From a virus: a stretch of DNA of 64,000 nucleotides. The position numbers and the translations under genes were made by a program. The stretch lies in IMG/VR virus record IMGVR_UViG_3300027974_000021; one strand, 5' to 3'. This document shows, one piece after another, positions 8,007 through 64,000 of the stretch; position 1 is the first letter of the stretch, and every line of letters starts with the position of its first letter. The notes under the pieces are model-generated. The model saw nothing but the letters and a program-made list of their open reading frames with translations. It ran no database searches and had not been told where the DNA came from.

Positions 8007-11000
8007 ATGGCTATAGGCCGTATATCTGGTTCAATGTTAAAATCTAACCTGACTAGAAACGGGGTAGATCTAGCATTTGAAACCAACATTCTTTATCTTG
8101 ACGTTACCAACGCTCGAGTTGGAATTGGGACTTCTTCACCATCAACAGCATTACACGTAATCGGAACAACTACCACTGATAATCTAGTGGTTAATAACAT
8201 AACATCAGACGACAGCACAGCCATACAGATCAATGACGGCATCAACGTCAGTGGCACAGTGACCGCAAACAGTGGCCTGGTTGCCAATGGCATAACCTAT
8301 CCCACCACAGACGGCAGCAACGGACAGGTATTAACCACAAACGGCTCTGGCACACTGAACTTTGTTAGTCCAAGCGCATTTGGTAGCATGACCTTTGTGG
8401 GTGATGACAGCACAGGTTCCACAATCAACACAGCAGAGACACTGAAATTCGCAGGAGCAACAGGCATAACCACTTCTGTAGTAAACGACACTGTCACAAT
8501 AACTGGACCAAATTTAAGTGCATACCTAACCAATTCTCCAATCACGGTGGTAGGTGATGACTCCACGGGCACTACATTAAACACAGGTGAAACAATTAAA
8601 ATTGCAGGTGCTGGAGGAATCACCACAGCAGTGTCGGGAGATGTATTAACTATCACTGGTGCTAATCAAGCACAAGGTATCACATTCGTAGGCGATGATT
8701 CCACTGGCACAAGAATTTCCGATGGTGAAACTCTAAAAATAGCAGGCACAAGCAATATCACAACGGCCATGTCAGGTGACACTCTGACCATCACAGGCAG
8801 CAAAGACATCAACGTTAATTCTATATCATCTGGAGATTCATCTGCTATACAGATCAATGATAACGTAAATGTATCAGGCACTTTTAATGCCAAAACCATT
8901 GTGACCAATGATCTAATATCCGAAGACAGCACTGCTATCAATGTGTTGGATGGCATGAATGTGTCAGGCACACTGAGTGCTGATGTATTAGATGTGAATG
9001 AAATCAGTTCATCGGATTCATCTGCTATACAGATCAATGACAGTTTAAATGCCAGTGGTACTATCACGGCCGCAAGTTTTGTTACACACGGTGTATCAGG
9101 CAATATCACAGGTGTTAATAATATTGAAGTTAATCAGATTTCCAGCAATGATTCCACTGCTGTACAGGTAGCAGATGGCATGAATGTGTCAGGTACTCTA
9201 ACAGCTCCAACATTCGTAACCAACGATATCAGTTCTAATGATTCTACTGCAATACAAATCAATGATGCTGTGAATATTGCTGGTAATTTGAGCATGAATG
9301 GTAACAAAATTACTAATTTGCCCACTCCACTTTCAGACAATGAGCCTGCTACTAAAAACTATGTAGACAATCAATTTGCTGCTGCTGGATCAGGCACTGT
9401 GACATCGATCACCGCAGGCACAGGACTTACGGCTTCTCCAACTAATCCTATAACCACCACAGGCACAATAGCACTGGATTTCAGCACTGTGGTTGCTCGA
9501 ATAGTAGGCGATGACTCTACAGGCACAGATCTTCGAGTAGGTGAAACAATTAAAATTGCAGGAACATCTAATATCACAACTGCAGTATCAGGAGATACTT
9601 TAACCATCACAGGACCAAATTTAAGTGCATATCTAACCAATTCTACTCTAACTGTGGTAGGTGACGACAGCACAGGCACTACATTAAACACAGGTGAAAC
9701 AATTAAAATTGCAGGTGCTGGAGGAATCACCACAGCAGTGTCGGGAGATGTATTAACTATCACTGGTGCTAATCAAGCACAGGGTATAACAGTAGTTGGA
9801 AATGACAGCACAGGCACAAGAATATCAGATGGTGAAACTTTACAAATTGCTGGCACAAGCAACATCACAACTGCCGTGTCGGGAGACACCCTGACCATCA
9901 CTGGTCCAGATCTAAGTTCCTTCATCACGGCTTCAAGCACTGACACATTATCAAATAAAACTTTTACTCTTGCTCAAAGTGGTGGTACAAGTGCATATGC
10001 AACTAAAAGAGTTTTACAATACAACGAAGGAACTGGAGTAATTACATATAGTAATAAATTAGATGCTGTAAGCCCATACATTACAGGATATGGTTCAGAA
10101 ATTCACGTTAGTCCAGTTGCTCTTGATAACACAGGTAATGGAACCATTGGCGATCCAGTTAAAACAATTGCTAAAGCATTAGAATTAGCTGCACTTGCTT
10201 TCGAAACAACTACTGCTGGCTCAAGAAAAACAATTATTCTACATCCAGGAGATTATGCAGAAAATGTCACACTTGATACTCAATATATTGTTTTAACCAC
10301 ACACGAGGCAATAGGCAAAAATACAACTCTTTCTGGCACATTAACTATTTCAAAAGGTTGTACTGTTAATGGACTGAAGATGACAAATCTTATTATTTCA
10401 GCAACTTCAGCAACAGGCTCAGTTGATATTATTAATTGTACAGTGACAACAGCAACTACAAAAACATCAAGTGCATATACAAATTTTAGATTATGCGATT
10501 TATCTTCATCTACATTAAGTATTACTGGTGCTGGCTCAGTCGTGCTGAATGGTGGTAATTATGGTACTGTCACTGTAAATAATGCTTCTGCTGCAGTTTT
10601 GGCTAAAGCAGTTATTACAATGGCACCAGTGACTTTAACAGCAGGAACATTACAAATTGCTGACACAGTTATCTACTCTGCTACTAATACATCTAATGCT
10701 ATAACACAAAGTGCTGGATCATTTTTAACATTAAACAATTGTCAAACATTAATACCTGATTTAACAAACGTAGCAAGAAATAGTTTTGGTGGATATTATT
10801 CTATTCTTCATTCTGTTTATGATAAAGCAAACTCTACATTCGGTGGAACATCATTATCAGCAGTTTCATATAGTCAGTATGTTAATGCTGATAGATTAAC
10901 TCTAAATGGATCAACATCTGGTGCTACTATAATTAACGCAACTGCTGCTGCAGGAACTACTACATTAACACTTCCAGCTGCAACTGACACTTTAGTTGGA

Positions 11001-14000
11001 AAAGCTACAACAGATACATTAACGAATAAAACAATTAATTTAACTTCTAATACATTATCTGGAACAACTGCACAATTTAATACAGCATTGAGTGATGATA
11101 ATTTTGCCACATTAGCTGGAACAGAAACATTAACAAATAAAACATTAACAACTCCTGTAATTTCTAGTATTTCTAATAGTGGAACAATAACTATTCCTAC
11201 AGGAACGGATACTTTAGTTGGTCGTGCAACTACAGATACATTAACAAATAAGACTTTAACATCTCCAGTTATATCAACAATAACGAATACTGGAACATTA
11301 ACATTACCTACATCTACCGATACATTAGTTGGAAGAGCAACTACAGATACTTTAACAAATAAAACAATTGGTGCTGCAACAATTAGTGGAAATTTAATAC
11401 CAAACGCAGATGCAACAATTGATTTAGGATCTGGTGGACAAAAATGGGCAACTCTAAACGTAGTAAATATTACACAAACAGGAAATACAACAACTTCTGG
11501 TACTCTTCAAGTCACTGGCACAACTGCATTAAATGGTGGATTAACACTTGATGTAGATAAATTTACTGTTGCTGATGGAACTGGAAATACATTAATTGGT
11601 GGAACATTAGGTGTCACTGGCAATACTACACTTTCAGGAGATCTTTCAGTTCATGGTGGTGATTTAACTACTGATGCGACAACTTTCAATTTATTAAATA
11701 CAACAGCAACTACAATTAACATTGGTGGCGTCGCAACTACAATCGGAATCGGTGCTAATTCTGGAACAACAACAGTAAATAATAATTTAACGATTGCAGG
11801 AGATTTAACTGTAAGCGGAAATACAACTACACTTAACACAGCAACATTAGAAGTAGAAGATAAAAATATTATAATTGCTAAAGTTGCATCACCTACAGAT
11901 TCAACAGCTGATGGTGCTGGTATTACAATTAAAGGTGCAACAGATAAAACATTTAATTGGGTAGATGCTACTGATGCATTTACATCAAGCGAACATATTG
12001 AAACTGCTGCAGGAAAAACATTAGCATTAAGTGGTTCAAGTTCAGGTAAAACAACATTAAACGTTTCAGCTGCTGCTTCAGGAACTTTAACACTTCCAGC
12101 TGCAACTGATACATTAGTTGGAAAAGCTACATCTGATACACTTACAAATAAATCTATTTCTTTAACAACGAATACAATTACAGGAACAACTGCTGAATTT
12201 AACACTGCATTATCTGATGATAATTTTGTCACATTAACTGGAACAGAAACATTAACAAATAAGACATTAACGACTCCTGTAATGTCTTCTGTTTCTAATA
12301 GTGGGACAATAACTATTCCTACAGGAACGGATACTTTAGTTGGTAGAGCAACAACAGACACATTAACGAATAAAACATTAACATCTCCAGTAATATCTTC
12401 TATCTCTAACACTGGAACATTAACATTACCTACTTCTACAGACACATTAGTTGGAAAAGCAACAACAGATGTATTAACAAATAAATCAATAAGTTTAACT
12501 ACTAACACAATCACTGGTACAATTTCTGAATTTAACTCAGCTGTTTCTGATGCTAATTTAGCTACAATTGATGGTGTTGAAACATTAACGAATAAAACTT
12601 TAAGTTCGCCAGTTATCACAACTATTACCACAACAAGTAATTCTAGTATATCATTAGACCCGAATGGAACAGGAGTTGTAAATGTTCCTGCTGGTTATAC
12701 TGGAAGAGCAGGATTCGGAGTGAATTCTCTTGTTCCAAAATCTTATGTTGATGCTCTTGAAGCAGGATTACATGTTCATCAAGCAGTAAAAGCTGCAACA
12801 ACAGACACACTTGCAGTTTTAACAGGTGGCACAGTCACTTACGATAATGGTACAGCTGGAGTTGGTGCAACATTAACATTACAAAATGCTTTAACAACTT
12901 TAGATACATCATACACAGTAGTAAGTGGTGATAGACTTTTAATTAAGAATCAAGCAAATGCTGCTCATAATGGTATCTATACTATTGACGCAACAAGAAC
13001 AATATTAACAAGAGCAACAGATTTTGATTCTGTTTCAGAAATAGCAAGTGGTGATTTTTTATTTGTGGCTAATGGAACACAATTTGGTAATCAAGGATAT
13101 GTACAAACAGTTGTAATGGTCACAGTTGGTTCAACAAGTATTTCATTCACACAATTTTCTGGTGCTGGACAAATAACTGCTGGAAACGGATTAACAAAAG
13201 ATGGAAATACAATTGATGCAGTTGGAACAGCAGATCGTATTACTGTAAACGCAAATAGTATCGATATTGCTTCAACTTATGCTGGTCAATCTACAATTAC
13301 AACATTAGGAACAATTTCGAGTGGAACATGGCAAGGTTCAGCAATCGCTGGTCAATATGGTGGAACTGGAGTAAATAATTCTGGCAAAACACTTACACTT
13401 GGTGGTAATTTTACACATACTGGTGCTCATACTCTTGGTTTAACAACTACTGCAAATACATCAATAACTTTACCAACAACTGGTACTCTTGCGACTTTAA
13501 ATGGTTCTGAAACTTTAGCAAATAAAACATTAACTTCACCAATTATTTCAAGTATTTCTAACACTGGAACATTAACATTACCTACTTCAACTGATACTTT
13601 AGTCGGTCGTGCAACTACAGATACTTTAACGAATAAAACATTAACATCTCCAGTTATTTCAAGTATTTCTAACACTGGAACATTAACATTACCTACTTCT
13701 ACAGATACGTTAGTTGGTAGAGCAACTACAGATACTTTAACGAATAAAACGATTGGTGCTGCAACAATTAGTGGAAATTTAATACCAAATGCAAACGCAA
13801 CAGTTGATTTGGGATCAGCATCAAATAAATTTAGACATTTATATCTAGATGGTTCATCATTCTTTATGGGAACGACAAAAGTTTCAATGCATGCTAATGG
13901 ATATTTTGTATTTAACAATAATTCTGCTAGTGGATATCCAAGTGGAAGCAATGTGAGTGTTGCTACAGCCACAAATGGTGTTGGTGGAGGTGGTGGTGCA

Positions 14001-14048
14001 TCTACTGCAACAGTTGCAGCATTAGCGATCGCACTTGGAGGTGCTTAA
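8007..14048 (+). CDS. Giant repetitive tail fibre (2013 aa; possibly chimeric near 9950)
   Basis: MAIGRISG N-terminus, VGDDSTG and DSTAIQIND repeats, then [17 protein letters not shown] repeats, C-terminal ALAIALGG; SD AGGAG; CATAAATA at 7923-7930. Confidence 0.7.
8568..9781 (+). repeat. Exact 107-bp direct repeat (8568-8674 and 9675-9781)
   Basis: GGCACTACATTAAACACAGG...GCTAATCAAGCACA identical in both copies. Confidence 0.85.
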
Positions 14049-14051
14049 ATT

Positions 14052-14792
14052 ATGCCAGTGTCCACTCGTGAAGGACTTAAAGATTACGCACTAAGAAAAC
14101 TTGGTGCACCAGTTGTAGAAATTAACGTTGATGATGGTCAATTAGAAGATCGTCTTGATGAAGCATTAGAATATTTCAATATAAATCATTGGGATGGTTC
14201 TGAACGTACTTATGTTTCACACTTAGTCACAAATCAAAATATTAGTGATAAGTATATTCCTGTTGCTGATATAGTTTATGGTGTGAATAGAGTGTTCCCT
14301 ATATATGCAGGGTCATCAACTAGTAAAAATATATTTGATTTACAATATCAATTAAGATTAAATGATTTGTATGATTTAACATCTACTTCAGTTGTTTATT
14401 ATACAACAGTAATGAATCATTTACAATTACTTGATACAATATTAAATGGTCAACCTATGTTTCGTTTTAATCGTTTAACAAACAGATTAAATATAGATAT
14501 TAAATGGGGAACTGCAGTAAAAGCAGGTGACTATATTATATACGATGGATATAAAGCAATAGATCCTGCTTCATTTACTAAAATGTACAATGAGCCATGG
14601 TTGAAATCTTATACCACTGCTCTTTTTAAAGCACAGTGGGGAACTAATTTAAAAAAGTTTTCAGGATTAGAACTTCCTGGAGGTGTGACACTTGATGGTG
14701 ATAAACTATATGCTGAAGCAAAAGAAGAAATTAAAGAATTAGAAGACATATTAGTTGGAAAGAATGCACCATTAGAATTTTCAGTAGGATAA
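14052..14792 (+). CDS. gp13: Neck protein
   Basis: LRKLGAPVVEINV..Q; KAQWGTNLKKF.G..LPGGVTLDG motifs. Confidence 0.9.
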   Translation: MPVSTREGLKDYALRKLGAPVVEINVDDGQLEDRLDEALEYFNINHWDGSERTYVSHLVTNQNISDKYIPVADIVYGVNRVFPIYAGSSTSKNIFDLQYQLRLNDLYDLTSTSVVYYTTVMNHLQLLDTILNGQPMFRFNRLTNRLNIDIKWGTAVKAGDYIIYDGYKAIDPASFTKMYNEPWLKSYTTALFKAQWGTNLKKFSGLELPGGVTLDGDKLYAEAKEEIKELEDILVGKNAPLEFSVG

Positions 14793-14796
14793 ACAA

Positions 14797-15714
14797 ATGT
14801 CTAGAAATGTTTATTTTACACAAGGAACTGCTAATGAGCAAAACCTAATAGAAGATTTAATTATAGAATCTTTAGGAATTTATGCTCAAACAGTTTATTA
14901 CATACCAAGAAAATATGTAAATAAAGATCAAATTCTTGGTGAAGATACATTAAGTACATTTAATTATGCTTACCCAGTTGAAATGTATTTTGAAAATGTA
15001 AAAGATTATGATGGAGCAGGCTCTTTCGTAAGTAAATTTGGTTTAATGATTGAATCATCAGCTACATTAGTTGTAGCAAGAAGAAGATGGAATCAATTAG
15101 TTGGTCAATATGGTAATACTATTTTAACAAATCGTCCAGTTGAAGGAGATTTAATTTATTTTCCTTTAACTAAAAGTTTATTTGAAATAAGATTTGTAAA
15201 AGATAAAGATCCTTTTTATCAATTAGGAAAACTTTACACTTATAAATTACAAGTTGAATTATTTCAATATTCTTCTGAAAAAATTGATACAGGTGTACCT
15301 GAGATTGATGTATTTGAACCATTAAAAACATTCAATACTGATCCTACACGTAATGAAGTAATGTATGTAAATAGTATTACATTTACAAATCTTGGTGCAG
15401 GTTATGTATCAGCACCAACATTAACATTTAATGGTGGAACTCCACTTACAAATGCTACAGCTACTTGTACTATATTAAATGGTAAAATAAATAGTGCTAC
15501 AATTACGAATGTAGGAAATGGATTTAATAGTGTACCTACAATTACAATAAGTGCACCACCAGCTGGAGGAACTCAAGCTGTTGCTACTTGTACTTTAAAT
15601 ATGAATATTGATAAACAAGGTGGCTTTGGTGATAACGTTTCGATTAAAGTTGAAAGAGACGTAAATAATAATAAAGTGGCATGGTCTGAAAATAATCCAT
15701 TTGGAGAATTTTAA
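14797..15714 (+). CDS. gp14: Neck protein
   Basis: YYIPR, SKFGL, RPVEGDLIYFP, PFYQLGK, ENNPFG motifs; synteny. Confidence 0.9.
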   Translation: MSRNVYFTQGTANEQNLIEDLIIESLGIYAQTVYYIPRKYVNKDQILGEDTLSTFNYAYPVEMYFENVKDYDGAGSFVSKFGLMIESSATLVVARRRWNQLVGQYGNTILTNRPVEGDLIYFPLTKSLFEIRFVKDKDPFYQLGKLYTYKLQVELFQYSSEKIDTGVPEIDVFEPLKTFNTDPTRNEVMYVNSITFTNLGAGYVSAPTLTFNGGTPLTNATATCTILNGKINSATITNVGNGFNSVPTITISAPPAGGTQAVATCTLNMNIDKQGGFGDNVSIKVERDVNNNKVAWSENNPFGEF

Positions 15715-15716
15715 TC

Positions 15717-16478
15717 ATGTTAAATAAACCACCATATTATCACGAAACAATAAGAAATTGTATTATAGGATTTGCAAAAATATTTTCAGATCTTAAAATT
15801 GAAAGAAAAAAAGCAAACGGAACAGTAGAACAAACGTTATTAATTCCGATTGCTTATGCTCCGAAAGAAAAGTGGATACAACGTATAGAACAAGATCCTA
15901 CTCTTTCGAATCAATTGATGACTACTCTTCCTCGTCTTTCTTTTGAAATGACTGGATTAAATTTAGATGCAACGAGAAAAGTTTCACGTATGGCATCTAT
16001 TGAGAAGAATAAAGCAGTTGGAGCTGGAGTAAATACAGCAAATAGAGTATTCGCTCCTGTACCATATAATTTAGATATAAATTTATATTGTATATCTAAA
16101 AATACAGAGGATGGTTTACAAATAGTAGAACAAATTCTACCTTATTTTACACCAGAATTCACGATGAGTATTCAATCGATGAAAACACCTCTTGATATTG
16201 TCACTGATGTTCCTATTATTTTAAATAGTGTGACATTTGTAGACGAATATGATGGTACTTTTGAGACACGTAGGTTTGTGACATGGACATTAGGTTTTCA
16301 ATTAAAACTTAATCTTTTTGGATATGCAAACCCAGATGGTAAAATTATATCTAAAACGATTGTTGATATTGGCAATCCAGATAGACAAAACACAATAATA
16401 GCTAACCTAAATACAGGTGGAATTACGAGTGAAACATGGGAAGATATATTTAAAACTTCCGAATACGATATAACATAA
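15717..16478 (+). CDS. gp15: Tail sheath stabiliser/terminator
   Basis: PIAYAPKEK, LPRLSFE, QIVEQILPYFTP motifs. Confidence 0.9.
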   Translation: MLNKPPYYHETIRNCIIGFAKIFSDLKIERKKANGTVEQTLLIPIAYAPKEKWIQRIEQDPTLSNQLMTTLPRLSFEMTGLNLDATRKVSRMASIEKNKAVGAGVNTANRVFAPVPYNLDINLYCISKNTEDGLQIVEQILPYFTPEFTMSIQSMKTPLDIVTDVPIILNSVTFVDEYDGTFETRRFVTWTLGFQLKLNLFGYANPDGKIISKTIVDIGNPDRQNTIIANLNTGGITSETWEDIFKTSEYDIT

Positions 16479-16490
16479 TAGGAAACAAAT

Positions 16491-17417
16491 ATGGCAAAAC
16501 AAGTAATAGGAGTTGGTTCATCGCCGAATGACGGAACAGGTAATACTTTACGTGATGGTGGTGTAAAAATCAATTCTAACTTTGACGAATTGTATAACGG
16601 ACTAGGTGGAAGCACTGTACGTATTGCAATTCCATCATCAGCAATTTCAAATGGCGCAACACTTAAATTTGATGGAACTAATTTCGTACCAAATTCAGAT
16701 ATAGATACAAATACTACTTATGCTATTAGTTCAGAAACAGTAGCAAGTGGTGCAAAAGTAAGATTAACAGGATCAGATTCTACAACTGATGATATATCAA
16801 TTTTAACAGCAAATGCTGGACTTACAATTACTCGTACTGACGCAAGTACAATCACTCTTACAAATAATAATCCAGCCCCTGTCACTTTTTCTTTAAGTGC
16901 TGAAGCTATTCAAGCAGGTCAAAGAACAATTCGTTTAACAGGATCAAATGCTTCGTTATCTGATATTGCTCTTATTGCTGGTACTGGTATGACAATATCA
17001 AATCCGACTGCTTCTTCTATTACTTTAGATTCTGCAATCGTTTCAGTAAATGGTGCAACTGGTGCAGTTATTACAAGAAGAACATATTCTTTTGGTGGTG
17101 CTACAACTTCTAATTATCTAGTGACTGGTCCAGGATTGCCTACAGCTGGAGCAAATGATCCAGATATTATTGCTCAAAGAGGTGAAACTATAAGATTTAC
17201 AAATACACGTTCAGGACAAATTTTAGAAATACTTGATACTTCAAATGCTGCTCCTGCAGGTGATTATATTTCATCGCAAGGTTCATCAGCTAATATAGCA
17301 GATCAAAACCAAACGATTACATTTACAATACCAATGTCTGCTTCTACAGGAAACACATTTAAATATCGTAGTCAAACTGAGCCTGCGAATATGTTAGGAA
17401 ACATAGTAGTTATATAA
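16491..17417 (+). CDS. Structural protein with gp9/gp10-type N-terminus
   Basis: NDGTGNTLRDGGVKINSNFDELY matches T4 gp9/gp10 N-terminal motif. Confidence 0.65.
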   Translation: MAKQVIGVGSSPNDGTGNTLRDGGVKINSNFDELYNGLGGSTVRIAIPSSAISNGATLKFDGTNFVPNSDIDTNTTYAISSETVASGAKVRLTGSDSTTDDISILTANAGLTITRTDASTITLTNNNPAPVTFSLSAEAIQAGQRTIRLTGSNASLSDIALIAGTGMTISNPTASSITLDSAIVSVNGATGAVITRRTYSFGGATTSNYLVTGPGLPTAGANDPDIIAQRGETIRFTNTRSGQILEILDTSNAAPAGDYISSQGSSANIADQNQTITFTIPMSASTGNTFKYRSQTEPANMLGNIVVI

Positions 17418-17435
17418 TAAAGGTGGATAGGGCTT

Positions 17436-19019
17436 ATGCCTACAAATTTTTATAATGCAAATACAGCACTTAAAGCTGTTGGTGTAAAAGTAAAATTTAC
17501 AAAACAAGAAGTACAAGAATTTCTTAAATGTAAAGAAGATCCAATTTACTTTATAGAAAATTATTGTAAAATAGTTTCATTAGATTTAGGATTAATTCCT
17601 TTCGCTTTATATGATTGTCAAAAAGAAAAAGTAAGGACAATCATGAATAATCGTAAAGTGATTTTAATGGAAGGAAGACAGCAAGGAAAAACTATTACTT
17701 CTGCTGCATGTATTGTACATTATACATTGTTTAATGATAACGTCACTGTTGGTATATTAGCAAATAAAGGAAGTACCGCAAGAGAAGTTTTAGATCGTTA
17801 TCAATTAATGTATGAAAATTTACCTTTATGGTTGCAACAAGGTGTTGTGACTTGGAATAAAGGAGATGTAGAATTAGAAAATGGTAGCAAAGTATTTACT
17901 TCTGCTACAACACCAAGTGCGATACGTGGTAAGTCAGTTAATTGGTTATATATTGATGAAGCTGCAATTATACCAAATCAAATCGCAGAAGAATTTTTTA
18001 CTTCAGTTTATCCTACTATTATGGCAGGAGAAACTACAAAAATATTATTAAGTTCTACTCCATTAGGATATAATCACTTTTGGAAATTTTGGAATGATGC
18101 TGTAAATAATAAAAATGGATTTAAAAATCTTTTTATTCCTTACGATAAAATTCCAGGACGCGATAAAGCTTGGGCTGAAGCACAAAGAAAATTACTTGGT
18201 GATGTAAAATTTAATCAAGAAATACTTTGTGAATTTTTAGGAAGTTCACTTACACTTATTAATGGTGAAACTTTAAGAAATTTATCTCCTAAACCATTCA
18301 TATATTCTAAAGATGGTTTAGATATATTAGAAAAGCCTGAACCGAATCGTAAGTATGTAATTGTAGTTGATTTGAGTAAAGGAACAGGAAGAGATTATAC
18401 AGCACTTAGCATTTTTGATATAACAGAAATGCCTTATAAAGTTGTAGGTAAATATCGTTCGAATACAATTAGCATACTACTCGTTCCAAGTATTATAGAT
18501 AAAATTGGAAGAGATTATAATAATGCTTTTGTGTTAATTGAAATTAATAGTGGTGAAACAGTTCCCTATATATTACATAATGAATTAGAATACGAGAATA
18601 TTATCTTTGTTGCAAGAGTTAAGAATGAAGGACAAAGAATTACTGGTGGATTTGGTGACAAATCAAGTGCACTAGGTGTCACAACTGATGTATCTGTAAA
18701 AAGAAAAGGTTGTAGCATATTAAAGAATTTAATTGAGAATAATAGTTTATTAATATTTGATTCAACTATTATTAGCGAATTAACTACATTTATCAGCAAA
18801 AATGGTTATTTTTCAGCTGACGATGGCTATACTGATGATCTAGTGATGACGTGTGTACTCTTTGCTTGGCTTACAGCTGACGTATATTTTAGAGAAATAA
18901 CGGACGTAAATATAAGAAAAGAGTTATATAAAAAACAAATACAAGAGATTGAAGAAGAGTTGACTCCATTTGGCTTCTTAAATGATGGAAATGACCGAGA
19001 AAACCCTTCGAATTTTTGA
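17436..19019 (+). CDS. gp17: Terminase large subunit
   Basis: RQQGKT Walker A, YIDEAA Walker B, SSTPLG, DDLVM nuclease motif. Confidence 0.95.
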   Translation: MPTNFYNANTALKAVGVKVKFTKQEVQEFLKCKEDPIYFIENYCKIVSLDLGLIPFALYDCQKEKVRTIMNNRKVILMEGRQQGKTITSAACIVHYTLFNDNVTVGILANKGSTAREVLDRYQLMYENLPLWLQQGVVTWNKGDVELENGSKVFTSATTPSAIRGKSVNWLYIDEAAIIPNQIAEEFFTSVYPTIMAGETTKILLSSTPLGYNHFWKFWNDAVNNKNGFKNLFIPYDKIPGRDKAWAEAQRKLLGDVKFNQEILCEFLGSSLTLINGETLRNLSPKPFIYSKDGLDILEKPEPNRKYVIVVDLSKGTGRDYTALSIFDITEMPYKVVGKYRSNTISILLVPSIIDKIGRDYNNAFVLIEINSGETVPYILHNELEYENIIFVARVKNEGQRITGGFGDKSSALGVTTDVSVKRKGCSILKNLIENNSLLIFDSTIISELTTFISKNGYFSADDGYTDDLVMTCVLFAWLTADVYFREITDVNIRKELYKKQIQEIEEELTPFGFLNDGNDRENPSNF

Positions 19020-19023
19020 AAAA

Positions 19024-19065
19024 ACTAAATAGGTAAGAGAAATAGCACGTTTGTCAAGAAACGTG
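19024..19065 (+). promoter_or_regulatory. Late promoter (ACTAAATA) and leader hairpin
   Basis: ACTAAATA 19024-19031; CACGTTT/AAACGTG stem 19046-19065. Confidence 0.6.
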
Positions 19066-19091
19066 TCAATAATTAAAGAGGAGAGAGCAAA

Positions 19092-20801
19092 ATGGCATTC
19101 CAATTAAGTCCAGGAGTAATTGTCACAGAAAAGGACTTCACAAGTATAGTTCCTAATGTTGCCACAAGTGCAGGTGCATTTGTAGGTAAATTCGCATGGG
19201 GACCAATCGAAGATCCAGTGCAAATTACATCCGAAAACGAATTAGTAGAAAGATTCGGTACACCAGATGATTCAACTTTTGAATCATTTTTTACTGCAGC
19301 TAACTTTTTATCATACTCGAATAATTTATTCGTAGTAAGAGGAAATGGTTCAACTGATAGAAATGCAGGAATTAGTGGTACCGCAGTTAAAATTAAAAAC
19401 GCAGAACAATACTTATCATCATATGCAGGTGGTCAAGGAACTGTTGGCGAGTTCGCAGCTAAGTGGGCTGGAGCACGTGGCAATTCTTTAAAAGTATCAA
19501 TGGCTGATAAGTCAACTTTCACAGGTTGGACTTATGAAACTAGCTTTGATAGATCGCCAGACACATCAGCTTGGGCAACATCAAATAACGTATCTAATGA
19601 TGAAATTCATATTATCGTAATCGATGAAGATGGATTATTTACTGGCACAGCTGGTACAATCTTAGAAAAATTTGAATATGTTTCAAAAGCATCAGGTGCT
19701 AAAAAATCTGATGGTTCAAACAATTATTACAGAGATGTAATCAATTCAAATTCAAAATACATTTGGTGGATGGATCATCCAACTCAATCAGCAGAAGTTA
19801 ATAATGCAGCGAATGGCAGTGCGGTAGCATGGGGAACAGCTCCAGCAGCACAACCATACAAAGATATTACAACAGCATTAAATGCTTCCTTAGTTGGTGG
19901 TGTTGATGACTATGCAGGTGTGACTGCAGGAAACATTCAAACAGGTTATGCTTTGTTTGCAAACGATCAGCTTGACATATCGTTAGTCCTTTTAGGAAAA
20001 GCGACAGCAGCAACAGCAACTTATGTAATTAATAGCGTCGTAGAAGTAAGAAAAGATGCAGTAGCTTTTATCTCTCCAGAAGCAGCAGGTGGTTCTTATA
20101 TTTCTGATGCTTCAGCGACACCAGTAGCAGATATTATAACATATAGAACAGCACTTCCAAGTTCTTCTTATGCTATATTAGATTCTGGTTATAAATTCCA
20201 GTATGATCGTTATAATGACAAGTATCGTTATGTCCCATTAAATGGTGATGTAGCTGGTCTTGCCGCAAGAACAGATTATGCTCAAGATCCATGGTATTCA
20301 CCAGCAGGTGCAAATCGTGGTCAAATTAAAAATGTTGTTAAACTAGCATTTAATCCAAATAGAACACAAAGAGATTCACTTTATCAAAAAGGTGTAAATC
20401 CAGTTGTGACGTTTCCAGGAGAAGGAACTCAATTATTTGGAGACAAAACTTTATTGTCAGCACCAAGTGCTTTCGATAGAATCAATGTACGAAGATTATT
20501 CATTGTATTAGAAAAAGCGATCTCAATTGCTGCGAAAGCACAATTGTTTGAGTTCAATGATGCTTTCACTCGTGCTCAATTCAAAAATCAAATAGAACCA
20601 TTCTTAAGAGACGTACAAGGTCGTCGTGGTATTACTGATTTTAGAGTTGTGTGTGATGAAACAAATAATACAGGTGCAGTAATCGACAGAAATGAATTTG
20701 TAGCAAGCATTTTCATTAAACCTAATCGCTCAATCAACTTCATTAATCTAACATTTGTAGCAGCAAGATCAAGTGTTAATTTTAGTGAAATCGGTGGCTA
20801 A
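19092..20801 (+). CDS. gp18: Tail sheath protein
   Basis: LSPGV...E.D, F.WGP, PWYSPAG.NRG, FDRINVRRLF motifs. Confidence 0.95.
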   Translation: MAFQLSPGVIVTEKDFTSIVPNVATSAGAFVGKFAWGPIEDPVQITSENELVERFGTPDDSTFESFFTAANFLSYSNNLFVVRGNGSTDRNAGISGTAVKIKNAEQYLSSYAGGQGTVGEFAAKWAGARGNSLKVSMADKSTFTGWTYETSFDRSPDTSAWATSNNVSNDEIHIIVIDEDGLFTGTAGTILEKFEYVSKASGAKKSDGSNNYYRDVINSNSKYIWWMDHPTQSAEVNNAANGSAVAWGTAPAAQPYKDITTALNASLVGGVDDYAGVTAGNIQTGYALFANDQLDISLVLLGKATAATATYVINSVVEVRKDAVAFISPEAAGGSYISDASATPVADIITYRTALPSSSYAILDSGYKFQYDRYNDKYRYVPLNGDVAGLAARTDYAQDPWYSPAGANRGQIKNVVKLAFNPNRTQRDSLYQKGVNPVVTFPGEGTQLFGDKTLLSAPSAFDRINVRRLFIVLEKAISIAAKAQLFEFNDAFTRAQFKNQIEPFLRDVQGRRGITDFRVVCDETNNTGAVIDRNEFVASIFIKPNRSINFINLTFVAARSSVNFSEIGG

Positions 20802-20821
20802 TAATTAAAGGAGAAACTTAA

Positions 20822-21415: not shown

Positions 21416-21449
21416 TAACAGAGTTCTAAAAAGAACTTAGAAATAGATT

Positions 21450-23015: not shown

Positions 23016-23018
23016 TTT

Positions 23019-23204
23019 ATGGAAATGAAAAACAAAATTAAAGACTTAATTGATAATATTGAAATAGGAAATGCTGACGCAATTAATGCATCGTTTTCAA
23101 CAGTAATGGCTGAAAAAGTATCAGCAAGATTAGATAGTTTAAAGCAAGAAGTTGCTAATGTGGTATTTAAAGATAAAATAGAAAATAACGAAAAAAATAA
23201 TTAG
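23019..23204 (+). CDS. Small prohead core protein (gp67-like position)
   Basis: 61-aa helical ORF after portal; synteny. Confidence 0.5.
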   Translation: MEMKNKIKDLIDNIEIGNADAINASFSTVMAEKVSARLDSLKQEVANVVFKDKIENNEKNN

Positions 23205-23215
23205 GAGTATTACTA

Positions 23216-23638: not shown

Positions 23639-23642
23639 TTAA

Positions 23643-24302: not shown

Positions 24303-24309
24303 CTAAATA
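24302..24309 (+). promoter_or_regulatory. Late promoter
   Basis: ACTAAATA upstream of scaffold/MCP genes. Confidence 0.65.
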
Positions 24310-54728: not shown

Positions 54729-56027
54729 ATGACAACAAAAGTGATAACCGCAGCAACTAAAGTTGATTGTGAGCATTTGCTTGCGACTTTTGTAGATCAT
54801 TCACACTATGACACTTTGGTGGAATATGATTGTGATTTCTATGCTCCATCTGTAGATGGGATAAACAGCGAGAAAAACATTCTGTTTAAGTTTAGAAAAA
54901 ATTGGTTTACGAAAGAGCAACAAGACTTAGCATATAAAGGTCTTCGAGAAGCAGCAGTCGAAACACAAAATCGTGGCATAGCAGCAGGACCAAAAGGTTC
55001 AAAACTTGGTGGTCGTGACTGGGTGACGGAATATCAAGAAGAAATGCTTGAAGCATTATCTAAGTATGAAACTACACTTGATGGTTCTAATCCTATAACA
55101 ACAATCACAGAAAAATATAAAAACAAAGATAAAACAGCAGCAGGAAACAGAGGATCTGTTTGGCTTAAGAATAAAGTCACTGATGAAGGATTTATCTTTG
55201 AAGAGTGGTTAAATGAAATAAAATCATTATCTCGTGATGAAATAGTGAAAGAAGCAATACGAGTAAAGTCTAAATTGACTTCAACAACTTCATATGCGCA
55301 AGCAGTGTGGTCTGGTATTGCTGGATATTTTGATAGATATCCTCGTATTCCTTATGGAAGAGCAACATCATTTACTGAAAAGAATCCTGAGAAATTTGCT
55401 ATGGGGTTCCCATTCTTACAAAAACTTTCAGATGGTTTTAAACAATTACTGCCTGAACGTTTTGCGAAACAAAAAGAAGCATGTGACAAAATGGATCCAA
55501 AGTTTATTATTCCAGGAACTGTATTTACTACAGCGACTGTAAATAAAACTTTTAGAACAGCAGCACATAGAGATGCTGGTGATTTAAATGAAGGATTTAG
55601 TAATCTTACAGTAGTATCAAACAATGGTAAGTACAAAGGAGGTTATCTAGTACTACCAGAATACAAAGTTGCTGTAAATATACGTCCAGGAGATTTATTA
55701 TTAATTAACAATCACGAGGGTATTCATGGAAATACTGAAATGACTGTTGAAGATCCTGAAGCAGAACGTATTTCTTTCGTTTGTTATTTCAGAGAAAAGA
55801 TGCTAGAACTTGGCTCTTGGAATTATGAATTAACAAGAAAAAATTACGTTGAAGATAGACGTAGAAATAAAGACCATCCATTACAAAGAGAACTTTGGAA
55901 TGGAGTTTCAGAAAATATGTGGAAAGATCAAGAATGGTATGATTATCTAACATCTAAATTAGGTAAAGAATCATTATACAAATACCATCCTGAAGCAAAT
56001 AAATCTTCACTTGAAGCATTTTTTTAA
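54729..56027 (+). CDS. TET/JBP-family 2OG-Fe(II) dioxygenase
   Basis: SGIAGYFD, FRTAAHRDAGD (HxD), IHGNT, RISFVCYFR. Confidence 0.8.
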   Translation: MTTKVITAATKVDCEHLLATFVDHSHYDTLVEYDCDFYAPSVDGINSEKNILFKFRKNWFTKEQQDLAYKGLREAAVETQNRGIAAGPKGSKLGGRDWVTEYQEEMLEALSKYETTLDGSNPITTITEKYKNKDKTAAGNRGSVWLKNKVTDEGFIFEEWLNEIKSLSRDEIVKEAIRVKSKLTSTTSYAQAVWSGIAGYFDRYPRIPYGRATSFTEKNPEKFAMGFPFLQKLSDGFKQLLPERFAKQKEACDKMDPKFIIPGTVFTTATVNKTFRTAAHRDAGDLNEGFSNLTVVSNNGKYKGGYLVLPEYKVAVNIRPGDLLLINNHEGIHGNTEMTVEDPEAERISFVCYFREKMLELGSWNYELTRKNYVEDRRRNKDHPLQRELWNGVSENMWKDQEWYDYLTSKLGKESLYKYHPEANKSSLEAFF

Positions 56028-56029
56028 AC

Positions 56030-57034
56030 ATGTCTCTCCATGAATTTTTAGGAGAGGAACGAGCACTAGATTGGTATTATACTGCTAATTCTTTAAACAA
56101 GGGATTAAAACTTGGTTATCGGAGAGTATCTGGTAAGATAGGATTAACAAATAAAGAATCTGGTGTTCGTGGCGCATGGGTAGAAAAAAGAATTGCACTC
56201 TTTAAGAACTTATTCGCATCTGGTTATTCAATAATTCCTTTTTCAACACCAACAGAAGCAACAGCAGCAGATGGATTTACATCTGTTGATACATACACAA
56301 ATTGTGATATACTTATATTAGAATTTGGTGGAACAAATTTACAATTCTATAAAAAAGATTGGGACAAAACAGTTGAACTGATTAAGTCACATTCTGGTAA
56401 AATAATATTCATTAACGACGATCCTGATCTACCATTTCTTTGGGAGTTATTACCAAATGAAAAATGGGATAGATGGGTAGTCGCAGCAAACGCAACCAAC
56501 TCTGCAGAAGTTTCAACAATTCTTAAATGCCCAATAGGTGTAAGAGTTGTAGATTTACCAATGGCGAATGGAATGTCATTTGAATCTTTTTCAAATGGTG
56601 ATATAGATAAAACTGTTTATATCGGAAGACCAAATGGAAGAACAAAATACTTCAAAGAATTTTTAAAGTCATCAAGTCTTGAAATATCAGGAAAACCAAA
56701 AGAGTGGACTGATTTTAATATAAACGTTATTGAAAATCCACAACAAAAAGATCGAAGAAAATTTTATAGAAATTATAAAGGATGTTTAACTGTTTATGAT
56801 AGTAAGCATAAAACATCTGGATGGAGAACTGGTCGTGCTTTTCATGCACTTTATGCTGGTATTCCAGTTTGTGCACCATCTGGAAATAATGGTTTAAATT
56901 GGACATATCCTGTAGAAACTGCAGAGGACTTAACTAAATTTACATCGTTATCAGATGAAAAACGTAAATTGATTTGGGAAAAACAAAAATCAATTATTCA
57001 AAATGAAACAAATATAGATTTAATTTTATTATGA
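56030..57034 (+). CDS. Putative GT-B DNA glycosyltransferase (beta-glucosyltransferase-like)
   Basis: ~334 aa; DILILEFGG..LQFY, IIFINDDPDLPF, VYIGR..GR, TGR...ALYAGIPV; adjacent to TET/JBP. Confidence 0.55.
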   Translation: MSLHEFLGEERALDWYYTANSLNKGLKLGYRRVSGKIGLTNKESGVRGAWVEKRIALFKNLFASGYSIIPFSTPTEATAADGFTSVDTYTNCDILILEFGGTNLQFYKKDWDKTVELIKSHSGKIIFINDDPDLPFLWELLPNEKWDRWVVAANATNSAEVSTILKCPIGVRVVDLPMANGMSFESFSNGDIDKTVYIGRPNGRTKYFKEFLKSSSLEISGKPKEWTDFNINVIENPQQKDRRKFYRNYKGCLTVYDSKHKTSGWRTGRAFHALYAGIPVCAPSGNNGLNWTYPVETAEDLTKFTSLSDEKRKLIWEKQKSIIQNETNIDLILL

Positions 57035-57480
57035 TAGTATCTTACGATATGGATGGTGTTCTTGCACTAAACCCACCACCAAATATAAAAAAATGGGGAC
57101 ATATGAATGGGGCTGAAAGAAGAGCAAGAAAAGAATTTCTATATGATTGGTATAGTTCTGCTGAACTATTATATAAACCAACTGAAGATAAATTTCATGT
57201 AATTTCAGCAAGAAAGAAAGACCAACGCACATGGGAAATAACGATGAATTGGTTAAATAAATATTTTCCTGGAAGAGTAATTTCATTATCTTTATTAAAT
57301 GTACCAAGAACTGTGAACAATGTAGTAAAGTTTAAGAATGATGCGATTAACTCAATTGGTGCAATCGAGCATACTGAAGATAATAAAAAAGTATTAAGAG
57401 GTATTTCAAAAATTAATAAGACTATTAAATTATACTTTTGGGAAAAGGATATGACAAACAAGGAAATATTCAATGGCTAA
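57031..57480 (+). CDS. HAD-family phosphatase
   Basis: YDMDGVL motif I, ISAR motif II, K, ED motif IV. Confidence 0.75.
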   Translation: MIVSYDMDGVLALNPPPNIKKWGHMNGAERRARKEFLYDWYSSAELLYKPTEDKFHVISARKKDQRTWEITMNWLNKYFPGRVISLSLLNVPRTVNNVVKFKNDAINSIGAIEHTEDNKKVLRGISKINKTIKLYFWEKDMTNKEIFNG

Positions 57481-58063
57481 AAACTATTTTCATTTAAAAC
57501 TTCCTTTTAAAGACCCTTTAAGTGAAAAAGGTATGACGTGGTTTCACAATCTACCACCTTGTTTTATACAAGTACCAAATCAATATTTTAATCCAGAAGC
57601 TGTTGAGTTTTTTAAAAAACATAAATTACTCTATTGGGATGCTGAGGTTTTTTCATTTCCTGCAAATTACAAAATGGAAATACATGTTGATGCTGTTGAG
57701 TTTTCAGAAAAATGTAAATTAAATTGGGCTTATAGTAAAGGAGACCATCATAATCTTTGGTTTAAACCAAAACCATCTTGGATACCAAGAGCAACTGACG
57801 GAGAACAAAACGATGGACGTTATGATGACTACAGCTACACTTTTGAAGAAAATGAAGTTGAAGAAGTTGAAAGAACTACTGTAAGAACACCAACTTGTAT
57901 AGTAAGTGGTCAGCCACATAGTGTGCGAACATATAGTGAGCCAAGAAAAGCAATTTCTGTCACTCTATATCCATATGGAACTAATCCACCAGCTTTACCA
58001 AAAGACTGGGGAATGCCAATATCAAACATGAAAGAGGTTTTAAATGATTACATCGTTGATTAG
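57473..58063 (+). CDS. Cupin/2OG-Fe(II)-like protein
   Basis: IHVD...KLNWAY...GQPHSV...R.AISV. Confidence 0.55.
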   Translation: MAKNYFHLKLPFKDPLSEKGMTWFHNLPPCFIQVPNQYFNPEAVEFFKKHKLLYWDAEVFSFPANYKMEIHVDAVEFSEKCKLNWAYSKGDHHNLWFKPKPSWIPRATDGEQNDGRYDDYSYTFEENEVEEVERTTVRTPTCIVSGQPHSVRTYSEPRKAISVTLYPYGTNPPALPKDWGMPISNMKEVLNDYIVD

Positions 58064-59759: not shown

Positions 59760-60248
59760 ATGGCATATATTACTTTTAGAGGGGGAACAAAAGAACAGAA
59801 AAAACTAGCTAAATCATTAGCTGAGTTTTGTCTTAAAAAACTCATTTCATCTCGTCTAAGTAATACATTAGATATTCGTATAGTATTTAAACCAACACTC
59901 TACACAAAAACAGAGTCGTATGGTGAAACTACCTATTATGAAGATTCAAATATACCACCAAAAGACTTCCTTGTAGAAATAGATTCAAAATTAAAAATGA
60001 GAAGTATGCTTGAAACAATTGCTCACGAGTTGGTTCATGTAAAACAATGGGCTACTGGTGAGATGAGAGAAACTAAAGATAATTTTATTACTAAATTTAA
60101 AAAAGACACCATTAATTCAAACAAAGTAAATTATTGGGATCAACCATGGGAAATAGAAGCGATGGGTAGAGAAGAAGGATTGTTTATTCAATGGGTTGAA
60201 GAAATGAATTTGTCTGAACAAACTTGGACTAAACGAAAGTATTTCTAA
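59760..60248 (+). CDS. HExxH metallopeptidase-like protein
   Basis: AHELVHVKQ, QPWEIEA; CCTAAATA at 59747-59754. Confidence 0.7.
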   Translation: MAYITFRGGTKEQKKLAKSLAEFCLKKLISSRLSNTLDIRIVFKPTLYTKTESYGETTYYEDSNIPPKDFLVEIDSKLKMRSMLETIAHELVHVKQWATGEMRETKDNFITKFKKDTINSNKVNYWDQPWEIEAMGREEGLFIQWVEEMNLSEQTWTKRKYF

Positions 60249-61351
60249 TGGCTGCAAATCCATCTGAATTTATTGCAAACCTTTTTAACGTTAAATCGAT
60301 AATTGAAATAATTAAAGAGTCTCCAGCAAAAGTAATTTTTAATAAAAATGATATAGTAATTTATACAGCAGATAAATCTACAAGAAGCAATGCTTTTGAT
60401 AACTTTAGAAAAGCTGCAGATAAAATTAAATCAAATTCTAAATCTAAATTTAAAAATTATCATATAAAACCCTCTTCTAAATCTTCACTTGGCGTATTTC
60501 AATTCTTTTTAGATTCAGCCAAATTACAGAAAGCATCAGGTGATATTTACTTTAAACCTATTATAACAAAAGGTTCAGGTGGTAAAGTTTTTGAAAATGA
60601 ATTAGAAAAAGATTTAAATGCTTACTTTAAAGGAGAGCCAGTAAAAAATTTAAAACATGCAGATACAATTCAATCTTTATTCTCAAATAAAACATTTCTT
60701 AGTATATATAAAATAACACCAAAAAATTTAAATGCATTTGAAGCGAAAGCAGTAGGAAATAGAAATTCAAAAAGACCAGCAAGTTTTTCAAATGGTCAAA
60801 TATCTCTTGGGAATAACACAGGAGAAGCTGTAAGTGATATTGATATTATTGGTCCGAATAAATCTATATATTGTTCTCTTAAATTTTCATCATCTTATTA
60901 CATCTATAATGGAAGTATGAAAGAAATATTTGAAGTCACTCCTAGAGTGAGAGATGAAGCATATAAGTTCTTTGGTTTAGATGGAATCGGAATGGCTGGA
61001 TTTGGCGAGATATTTCGTTCAAATGTAGTTTCTCCCAAAAGTCTACAAGTAGTTAGGAAAAATTTAGCAAAAACTATTCAATTATCTCTTGGGCAAGAAG
61101 TGACACTAATTAATAAATTCGGTCCAGGAAAAAATGATATTGATGTAATTTTTAAAGGATATACGTCTGATGTTTTAATTTCAGCAGATCCAGTTTACAA
61201 ATATCCTGAATCTGGAAAACGTAAATATGCAGCAATAGAATTTCCAGCAACTATCAATAACGACAAATATGCTGTTGGAATGCAATTTAGAGGAACAACA
61301 GAGGGTGCACTTACACCAAGATATTTAAGAATATTATTAAAAAAAATATGA
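60248..61351 (+). CDS. Hypothetical protein, possible PD-(D/E)xK-like fold
   Basis: G..FE..L and SDIDI......YCSLK segments. Confidence 0.4.
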   Translation: MAANPSEFIANLFNVKSIIEIIKESPAKVIFNKNDIVIYTADKSTRSNAFDNFRKAADKIKSNSKSKFKNYHIKPSSKSSLGVFQFFLDSAKLQKASGDIYFKPIITKGSGGKVFENELEKDLNAYFKGEPVKNLKHADTIQSLFSNKTFLSIYKITPKNLNAFEAKAVGNRNSKRPASFSNGQISLGNNTGEAVSDIDIIGPNKSIYCSLKFSSSYYIYNGSMKEIFEVTPRVRDEAYKFFGLDGIGMAGFGEIFRSNVVSPKSLQVVRKNLAKTIQLSLGQEVTLINKFGPGKNDIDVIFKGYTSDVLISADPVYKYPESGKRKYAAIEFPATINNDKYAVGMQFRGTTEGALTPRYLRILLKKI

Positions 61352-62624: not shown

Positions 62625-64000
62625 ATGAAGACAATAAAACAACTATTATCGGAATTACCGAACAAATCTCTTATATTTGCATTCGGTCGCTTTAACCCAC
62701 CAACAGTTGGGCACGAACTTTTGATCTCAAAAGTTGAAGCACTTTCAAAGAAAACATCAATCCCATATCGTATTTACACAACAGCTACTCAAGACAAAAA
62801 GAGTAATCCATTATCTCAAAAAGATAAAATTAAGTATATGGAAAAGTCTTTTCGTAATGCTCATATCTATGCTGCGAAAGGAAACATTATACAATTATTA
62901 CAAAGTTTTGAGAAAGAAGGAATTAAAGAAATTCATTTAGTTGTTGGTAGTGATAGAACAAAAGAATTTGAATCTCTTTTAAACAAGTATAATGAAAGAG
63001 AGTATAACTTTAGTAAAATAGAAATTCATTCAGCAGGAGAAAGAGACCCTGATAGTGATGATGCTGATGGTATGTCAGCAAGTAAGATGAGAAGTGCAGC
63101 ATCTAAAGGAGATTATAAATCTTTTGAAAAAGGTGTCACTAAAAAACTTACAGACATTGATACTAAAAAAATGTATAATGATGTTCGTAAGGGACTGGGT
63201 TTAAAAACAGAATCTTTTGAAATTAATATTTCAAATAATCAAAACGAATTAAGAGAAAAATATTTTAAAGGTGAAATATTTAAAGTAGGAACAACAGTTA
63301 AAGACGATAAAGGAGTGTACGAAATTATGGACAGAGGAACAAACTATATAACAGTTATAAACGAAAATGGAGAGTTAAGCAAGAAATGGCTTGATTCAGT
63401 AAAGGAAGTTATTACAGATATGAATTATAAAAACGAAGCTAAAGACGAACATCAAATTTCTTATAAAGGATTTACAACTTCTAATTTTGAAATTGTTCCT
63501 GAACTAAAACCAATTATTGAATCAGTAATTTCATCTGAAACAGATTCAGTAGCAATTATTAATGCACTCAAATCAATTGATGAATCACTAAAATTTTATA
63601 AACAAAATAAAGATATATTTCAAGTTCCTTTAATGAAAGGGATAGATGCTTTAAATAATATAGATCATGCAGTGTCAGGTATAGTTGCTGATTTAGTTTT
63701 AAAACTTCCAAAAGGTACATTTAAAGAAACATCAATCACTGAAGCATCTGATAATCCATTTAACTTCACATCAGCTGATAAAATTAAAATAGCAAGAATT
63801 ATAGCTGGTGCTTTAGGAATAGATAATCCTGAGAAAATGTCTAGCCCTGAACAATTAATTAATCTAGGATTAAGAAAATTAAGAACAAAAAGAATTACAC
63901 CTGAATTATCTGATGTAGTAAATCAAATGTTAAAAACAGCAGATATGTTAGATGTTAAGTATGATAAAAAATTATTACCACAAGCAATGCAAGAAGCAAC
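62625..64000 (+). CDS. HIGH-type nucleotidyltransferase (cytidylyltransferase-like), runs off window end
   Basis: FGRFNPPTVGH, VVGSDR, GMSASKMR; open to end of window so absent from track; ACTAAATA at 62586-62593. Confidence 0.8.
   Translation, partial: MKTIKQLLSELPNKSLIFAFGRFNPPTVGHELLISKVEALSKKTSIPYRIYTTATQDKKSNPLSQKDKIKYMEKSFRNAHIYAAKGNIIQLLQSFEKEGIKEIHLVVGSDRTKEFESLLNKYNEREYNFSKIEIHSAGERDPDSDDADGMSASKMRSAASKGDYKSFEKGVTKKLTDIDTKKMYNDVRKGLGLKTESFEINISNNQNELREKYFKGEIFKVGTTVKDDKGVYEIMDRGTNYITVINENGELSKKWLDSVKEVITDMNYKNEAKDEHQISYKGFTTSNFEIVPELKPIIESVISSETDSVAIINALKSIDESLKFYKQNKDIFQVPLMKGIDALNNIDHAVSGIVADLVLKLPKGTFKETSITEASDNPFNFTSADKIKIARIIAGALGIDNPEKMSSPEQLINLGLRKLRTKRITPELSDVVNQMLKTADMLDVKYDKKLLPQAMQEA

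Follow-up and report, generated by a model that had tools for sequence, protein, structure and literature searches.

Elimination of GTWAC and other short palindromes in an uncultured T4-like phage lineage, and a probable chimeric join in IMG/VR record IMGVR_UViG_3300027974_000021

We analyzed a stretch of 64,000 nt from the virus record IMGVR_UViG_3300027974_000021 (hereafter, the window), in which the word GTWAC (GTAAC or GTTAC) and several other short palindromes occur near one end and nowhere else. The window comprises two parts. The larger part (positions 9939–64000, no strand assigned) belongs to an AT-rich T4-like phage, which we call Y; it contains no GTWAC, GGCC, CCGG, ACSGT, GTTAAC or GTATAC and matches the JGI contig Ga0209296_1000028. 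The smaller part (positions 1–9938, plus strand) carries fibre and virion-protein genes of a foreign, GC-richer phage type, which we call X, with a GC content of 0.39 and normal word counts. The two parts meet inside a chimeric in-frame fibre open reading frame (ORF) of 2013 aa (8007–14048, plus strand), in which an X-type N-terminus of 644 aa is followed by Y-type residues 645–2013. The Y-type portion of this ORF begins with a fibre-gene cassette of 1.08 kb (9939–11020, plus strand) that is common to X and Y and flanked on both sides by TDTL(S/T)NKT motifs.

Positions 1–14048 code for fibre-like virion proteins, as judged from PHROG tail-fibre and virion matches. From position 14052 onward, the genes are of the T4 type and include those for gp13, gp14, gp15, terminase, sheath, tube, portal, scaffold and major head protein, followed further along by those for UvsW, gp46/47-like proteins, gp45, gp44/62, RegA, DNA polymerase, UvsX and gp41.

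All words were counted by exact scanning. A preliminary description of the window had reported about 20 GTWAC sites in the first 9.3 kb and none thereafter, where on the order of 100 might be expected. The exact total is 24 (19 GTAAC and 5 GTTAC), the last of which lies at position 9301, and no site occurs in 9306–64000. For the latter region, 104 sites are expected from base composition, 61 from a maximal-order Markov model (z = –7.8) and 69.4 ± 5.2 from a synonymous codon shuffle (z = –13.5), in which synonymous codons were permuted within each of 62 ORFs (n = 200, lowest GTWAC count 56). The count is thus far from expectation, and GTWAC is the most depleted of all 5-mers under the Markov model. 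The same shuffle applied to 1–9305 gave 20.7 expected against 21 observed sites, so that there is no avoidance in this part. Two further words reported as absent follow the same pattern across the boundary: GGCC falls from 14 to 0 (last site at 9068; 9.1 expected in 9306–64000) and CCGG from 9 to 0 (last site at 7947; 12.5 expected). In addition, GTSAC is 2.4-fold enriched in 9306–64000 (67 observed and 27.6 expected by codon shuffle, z = +8). Since GTSAC is enriched while GTWAC is missing, GTSAC is the replacement word, and the avoided word is GTWAC specifically and not GTNAC or GTSAC, as had been proposed.

We then applied the codon shuffle to all 4- to 7-mers in 9939–64000. Seven words were missing completely: GTWAC (68.8 expected), ACSGT (27.9), CCGG (11.4), TGTWACA (10.9), GTTAAC (9.2), GGCC (8.9) and GTATAC (8.2). 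Every fully purged word is a palindrome, and 14 of the 16 four-base palindromes fall below expectation. Other words are strongly thinned, namely AGSCT (6 against 22.8 expected), GCGC (5 against 20.7) and GAGCT/AGCTC (12 against 55–57), the last pair being the non-palindromic exception among the avoided words. ACSGT (ACCGT or ACGGT) resembles GTWAC as a five-base palindrome with a degenerate centre; its Markov expectation in the same region is only 7.0, there are 15 copies in 1–9305, and it is also absent from most AT-rich relatives.

The codon footprint of the purge is exact. Valine is encoded by GTW (GTT or GTA) in 811 of 971 cases overall, yet in 0 of 55 cases ahead of threonine, in agreement with the earlier remark that Val-Thr pairs are written as GTC or GTG followed by ACN. 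Tyrosine and asparagine after NGT codons use WAT (TAT or AAT) in 76 of 76 cases, and the TTA codon is never used in the context G-TTA-C. GTWAC has therefore been removed mainly by synonymous recoding, through the changes GTW-ACN to GTS-ACN and NGT-WAC to NGT-WAT and the avoidance of TTA in G-TTA-C.

The purge is shared by relatives of the Y part. Thirteen IMG/VR contigs with GC contents of 0.32–0.34 contain no GTWAC, GGCC or CCGG, when the median observed/expected ratio of GTWAC over all loci fetched for comparison by that point was 1.3 (loci are designated below by L and a number). The same zeros are found in more than 14 independent metagenome assemblies of one phage lineage. We grouped the sister contigs according to the identity of their gp13 to that of the window. 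No GTWAC occurs in the contigs with 100% identity, even within their own fibre regions (up to 8.8 kb, GC 0.34–0.35). At 96–97% identity there are 3–9 sites per 17–20 kb, two contigs having none; at 90%, there are 12–16 sites per 10 kb in three contigs and 3 sites in 18 kb in the fourth (L201); and at 82%, there are 0–1 sites. At 64–68% (L209, L213 and L226), GTWAC is at expectation. GGCC and CCGG are absent from all groups with at least 82% identity, as well as from L209 and L226. Loci anchored on homologues of the protein encoded at 60248, a gene described below, were similarly variable: GTWAC is absent from L240 (68% identity) and L244 (49%) and occurs 28 times against 24 expected in L242 (58%), and no word is purged in L246 (37%; GC 0.40).

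These results indicate that the GGCC and CCGG purge is old in the AT-rich clade, and that the GTWAC purge has been repeatedly gained or lost. Such patchiness across the clade is expected if strain-level restriction-modification (R-M) systems of the hosts impose the purge. The presence of the purge throughout the lineage in independent contigs, together with its gradation among the sisters, points to selection acting on DNA words. The proposal in the preliminary description that strong selection by a host R-M or other defence system underlies the purge is thereby strengthened in its first part, since the purge extends over the lineage, is graded and concerns short palindromes; the R-M cause itself is what we infer from this pattern. 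In kind, the purge is ordinary, classical restriction-site avoidance: the words are under-represented in composition-based and codon-aware models, they are short palindromes, and their absence is heritable within the lineage and variable between relatives. A sequencing artefact arising from modified bases was also considered and was ruled out by the occurrence of the same zeros in more than 14 independent assemblies and by the synonymous, frame-aware recoding.

Several other contigs show different sets of missing words. In three IMG/VR contigs (L006–L008, GC 0.36), only GGCC is missing, and CCGG and GTWAC are plentiful; in L023 (GC 0.44), GGCC and CCGG are both absent; and in L226, there is no GAGCT/AGCTC where 9–29 are expected. 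Over 8.2 and 4.1 kb, respectively, two metagenome contigs with related fibre genes (L152 and L153, GC 0.46–0.47) lack both GTWAC and GTSAC, and GGCC and CCGG are plentiful in them, which suggests a separate instance of GTNAC avoidance.

The sites that remain in the sisters reveal the order in which GTWAC was lost. In the strongly purged sisters (L191, L194–L197, L201–L203 and L205), 15 of 17 unique residual sites have the form TGTWACA, against a background of 16% (binomial P = 1e-10); the remaining two have a 5' T on one strand, and none lacks T on both strands. Among 28 sites in the weakly purged group (L198–L200), 11 are flanked by T and A, 14 are flanked on one side and 3 are unflanked, and in unpurged relatives the share of unflanked sites is 46%. 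Unflanked GTWAC was thus lost first and one-sided sites next, and TGTWACA was kept longest. In the phage of the window, even TGTWACA has been lost. Since the residual sites are mostly T-flanked, a 5' T on each strand appears to protect the site in part; the shield is possibly a chemical modification of the flanking T, or of the C before the 3' A. The flank effect hints that a 5' T, possibly modified by the products of a gene cluster around a TET/JBP-family dioxygenase, partly shields the site.

This dioxygenase is a candidate DNA-base modification enzyme encoded at 54729–56027 (plus strand; Pfam Tet_JBP, E = 2.4e-23). The gene keeps the same neighbours in the AT-rich relatives L240–L245 and is absent from the unpurged L246 locus. 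The conserved block (54729–58063) consists of the TET/JBP gene and three downstream genes (334, 149 and 196–198 aa) without family matches, and no DNA methyltransferase was seen nearby. The block raises an alternative, in which the words were not lost to classical Type II enzymes. In one version, a modification-dependent (Type IV-like) defence would recognize a modified base of the phage in these contexts; in another, the replication or modification machinery of the phage would have a mutational bias against particular contexts. The cluster is kept in relatives with few or no GGCC and CCGG sites and is missing from the unpurged locus, a distribution in accordance with this idea, and the dependence of residual-site survival on a flanking T would fit an effect of base modification. 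Nevertheless, we consider it highly improbable. The fully purged words are short palindromes, which is the signature of orthodox Type II systems (Rusinov et al. 2018, PMC6286503); exact zeros for six unrelated palindromes would not arise from a mutational bias, nor would a compensating enrichment of GTSAC exactly at Val-Thr positions; and close relatives with the same TET/JBP cluster differ in whether GTWAC is purged.

A phage-encoded nuclease has also been put forward as the cause, and two genes of the window were candidates. The first encodes a 367-aa protein without a known family (60248–61351, plus strand) and belongs to a block of late genes that also includes those for two other proteins, one ligase-like and the other nucleotidyltransferase-like. 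No matches to this protein were found in Pfam, PHROG or PADLOC, a profile search of PDB sequences returned only noise, and a Foldseek search against the PDB gave nothing at E ≤ 0.001. In its AlphaFold2 (AF2) model (mean predicted local distance difference test score, pLDDT, 86), residues 113–367 are predicted to adopt a HinP1I/MspI-like restriction-endonuclease fold, which would be of the PD-(D/E)XK type. When the model was compared with 48,161 chains using VIA-align, the top two matches were HinP1I (Z = 7.6, 185 aligned residues, root-mean-square deviation (rmsd) 4.2) and MspI (Z = 6.9, 199 aligned residues, rmsd 4.9), both below the value of Z = 8 at which the tool places its caution line. 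In a sequence alignment of 20 homologues, the invariant residues include D197 and S210-L-K212, which are candidates for a catalytic D...(N/Q/E)xK motif. Separately, the N-terminal domain resembles the nucleotidyltransferase fold, and a DUF6267 gene is always the next gene in the relatives.

On this basis, part of the purge might be a form of self-immunity, in which a predicted restriction-type nuclease encoded at 60248–61351, acting without a methylase, would attack host DNA while the phage's own genome is free of the target words. The structural matches, which recognize GCGC (HinP1I) and CCGG (MspI) and are covered over most of each chain, are suggestive, as are the invariant residues. Moreover, no DNA methyltransferase was found in the 64-kb window, CCGG is absent and GCGC is thinned to 5 against 20.7, and homologues with 49–68% identity occur in genomes free of GGCC and CCGG. 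If the idea were true, the phage could shred host DNA at words missing from its own 145-kb genome (CCGG, GGCC, GCGC or GTWAC), which would be a sequence-based counterpart of the discrimination between self and host DNA that T4 achieves by base modification. However, the tool itself notes that Z values below 8 may be due to chance in such a search, there is no family match at the sequence level, and the co-occurrence with the GGCC and CCGG purge is confounded by shared ancestry. The homologues also speak against it: the 58% homologue in L242 is found together with GTWAC at expectation, and L246, which has the 37% homologue, contains 56 CCGG, 45 GGCC, 19 GCGC and 27 GTWAC, so that a carrier genome need not be free of the target words. 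We therefore regard self-immunity as quite improbable. As these homologues occur where GTWAC (L242) or all words (L246) are at expectation, the 60248 gene does not explain the GTWAC purge, and the case for a phage-encoded GTWAC nuclease, as raised in the preliminary description, is weak; the gene may conceivably have had a part in the older CCGG and GGCC purge, a link that common descent confounds. The second candidate is an unclassified protein of 181 aa (49164–49709, plus strand) that has no Pfam, PHROG or PADLOC match and an unusable AF2 model (pLDDT 39). In an alignment with only four homologues, D62...E71-x-K73 is invariant and resembles the PD-(D/E)XK motif.

We next turn to the boundary between the two parts. 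The preliminary description had set the break at 9306 and taken 1–9305 as DNA of the same genome. The sites do end there, but the true break is at 9939, the interval 9306–9938 being site-free by chance (approximately 1.6 sites expected), and the left part is DNA of the other phage type, joined at 9939 via the common cassette. Inside the 2013-aa ORF, the GC content of third codon positions drops from approximately 0.3 to approximately 0.1 near position 9940. A protein search using residues 400–1300 of this ORF led to a protein of 1684 aa (P0030, 98% identical) encoded on Ga0209296_1000028, and hence to the locus L248 of this contig (144,838-bp record). Window positions 9939–24048 correspond to L248 10946–25055 with one mismatch in 14,110 bases (99.993%), and the identity begins exactly at 9939. 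In the native fibre gene of this phage (L248 10001–15055, 1684 aa), an Mtd_N N-terminus precedes the 1369 C-terminal residues that it has in common with the window ORF. The 10,945 bases of L248 upstream of the identical region represent the native, purged fibre module and contain no GTWAC, GGCC or CCGG, and nothing homologous to the first 645 aa of the 2013-aa ORF was found in the fibre module native to the purged lineage. In every purged relative, homology to the window starts at 9939, at the TDTLSNKT motif, and the lineage's other contigs, more than 20 in number, are all without an unpurged module.

In contrast to these, the relatives of positions 1–9938 (L143, L138, L052/L142 and L053) are all unpurged and have GC contents of 0.40–0.44; L143 is 86% identical over 2–6333, and L052/L142 are 95.5% identical over 6793–8230. 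In a junction-spanning protein search of metagenome contigs, no other contig joined the left X part to Y, and the best match (88%) covered the X part only. Likewise, no second record of the exact 2013-aa fusion protein was found, and the exact 40-mer at 9297–9336 had no match in viral contigs. Within the X-type part of the fibre ORF, 8568–8674 and 9675–9781 are identical over approximately 107 bp in two blocks of VGDDSTGT repeats that are otherwise 83% alike; this patch is gene-conversion-like.

The join lies at one edge of the cassette at 9939–11020. The left edge of the cassette is the exact start of the L248 identity, and the right edge (11,020, equal to L248 12,027) lies at a TDTLTNKT motif. 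In seven X-type loci (L002–L005, L167, L168 and L172) from several samples, the cassette is 90–95% identical to that of the window and forms an AT-rich island, with a GC content of 0.34–0.35 against 0.40–0.44 around it and 0–1 forbidden sites against 3–6 expected. An AT-rich and site-free cassette in GC-richer phages indicates that it moved naturally from the purged lineage into X-type phages, and such exchange in turn implies that phages of the two kinds are sometimes present in the same cells. In addition, the X-type locus L002 agrees with the window at every position (100%) in 9860–10056, across the join, and consequently the X and Y types have long exact words in common at this point.

The far end of the contig is also informative. 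Far-end ORF coordinates and C-terminal peptides, taken from the annotation of the same contig, were compared with L248, and five positions agreed with one constant offset of 46,313. The L248 ORFs ending at 6774, 9369 and 9999 terminate in VDSGEF, VDGGTYA and IDNEGLV, respectively, and the far-end peptides follow in the same order; the other two positions in L248 are the starts of an acidic ORF (9420) and of the native fibre gene (10001). From this colinearity, the far end would re-enter the native fibre gene and exit where the cassette ends on its right side. The contig could accordingly be threaded from the left X part (1–9938) through the cassette and the rest of the Y genome around its circle, then through the native N-terminus and the cassette a second time, and finally into a right X part of approximately 5.7 kb. 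A mis-resolved repeat in metagenome assembly would be the likeliest origin of such threading. The implied circle, which rests on the far-end annotation, is (153,706 – 9,939) + 945 = 144,712 bp, or 126–127 bp less than the L248 record, a difference of the size of the terminal overlap that may result when a circular genome is put together by de Bruijn assembly. Positions 1–9938 are therefore most likely the DNA of another phage, attached through the shared repeat by an assembly error.

Alternatively, the contig might be real and represent a natural, very recent recombinant of the purged phage with a foreign fibre module, perhaps in a new host without the restricting enzymes, so that the 9.9 kb would be an un-ameliorated transfer. 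T4-like phages recombine efficiently, both joins are in frame at TDTLxNKT linker motifs, and the cassette has moved naturally between phage types (90–95% identity in several samples, as a site-free island). Against this, a native N-terminus and a second cassette at the far end, with coordinates matched to L248, would make the molecule a cointegrate with the whole 144.7-kb genome inside the fibre gene of another phage. The contig of 161 kb exceeds the native 144.7 kb and a full cointegrate would be longer still, which makes headful packaging doubtful; as real DNA, the cointegrate would be too large for a T4-type head. There is no sign of amelioration in the left part (GTWAC, 21 against 20.7 expected), the backbone differs from the native contig by only one base in 14 kb, and an unpurged module is missing from all the further contigs of this lineage, of which there are more than 20. 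Furthermore, at least 47 forbidden sites would be exposed to a pressure that keeps 145 kb clean. A real recombinant thus seems unlikely, if somewhat less so than the other alternatives considered above.

Taken together, we estimate a probability of roughly 75% for the joint reading that 9939–64000 belongs to an AT-rich T4-like phage purged by restriction-site avoidance, and that 1–9938 derives from an unpurged, GC-richer T4-like type, probably through mis-assembly. The Y phage would then be an uncultured, AT-rich (30–33% GC), T4-like phage with a circular map of approximately 144.7 kb, from which GTWAC, ACSGT, GGCC, CCGG, GTTAAC and GTATAC have probably been eliminated, and AGSCT, GAGCT and GCGC thinned, under pressure from Type II R-M systems of its hosts, one of them presumably recognizing GTWAC. 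The purge is a property of the whole lineage and is still evolving. Four points weigh against this reading. We know of no host and no characterized restriction enzyme for GTWAC or ACSGT. No contig more than 96% identical to the full 1–9938 was found, and the X parent is known only by relatives with 86–96% identity. The far-end coordinates come from a model's annotation of the same contig, on which the threading rests in part. Finally, X-type phages must sometimes occupy the same cells as the purged lineage, and yet they are not purged.

The purge provides a clean whole-genome example of avoidance and suggests two new candidate specificities, GTWAC and ACSGT; R-M systems with these specificities are predicted in an aquatic host. 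The graded series of sisters offers a rare view of a purge in progress. Under the chimeric reading, the sharp internal boundary is the chimeric join, and the first 9.9 kb, as well as the last 5.7 kb as placed by the far-end annotation, should not be analyzed as part of this phage. Word-avoidance profiles may thus serve as a sensitive detector of chimeric joins.

As for the remaining features of the window, a free-standing HNH endonuclease gene (41718–42227) lies between the sliding-clamp (gp45) and clamp-loader (gp44) genes and is typical of T4-type homing endonucleases. In megablast searches against GenBank phages, 1–9305 had no match, and 20000–30000 had only matches of 75–78%, to unannotated marine-virus records and to gp23 of Prochlorococcus phage P-HM2.

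The findings can be compared with several known systems. Segments of T-even tail fibres are swapped at short conserved linker motifs ('His boxes'). The present cassette is similar in that it is bordered by a repeated conserved motif and is found, at 90–95% identity, in two phage types whose fibre genes are otherwise unrelated; it differs in that the motif is TDTL(S/T)NKT and in that the cassette matters chiefly as the route for the assembler's join. With inter-genome chimeric contigs, the window shares a join in a stretch common to both genomes, one side that is 99.993% identical to a contig that continues differently, and, according to the far-end annotation, a Y-type part equal to one circle plus one repeat copy; the difference here is that the X-type parent is represented only by relatives with 86–96% identity. 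GTWAC is among the methylated motifs of marine metagenome-assembled genomes, for which the main text names no taxon (Hiraoka et al. 2022, PMC8919816). This indicates that enzymes reading GTWAC exist in aquatic microbes, although the main text gives no link to the host of this phage. Restriction-site avoidance in lytic dsDNA phages has been surveyed by Rusinov et al. (2018, PMC6286503), who describe such a pattern of purged short palindromes for orthodox Type II sites. The Y phage resembles these non-temperate dsDNA phages in that several short palindromes have been eliminated or nearly eliminated at once with the proteins unchanged, and it differs from them in that the main word GTWAC, like ACSGT, was found without a characterized enzyme, and in that the purge proceeded stepwise, in an order set by the base 5' of the site.

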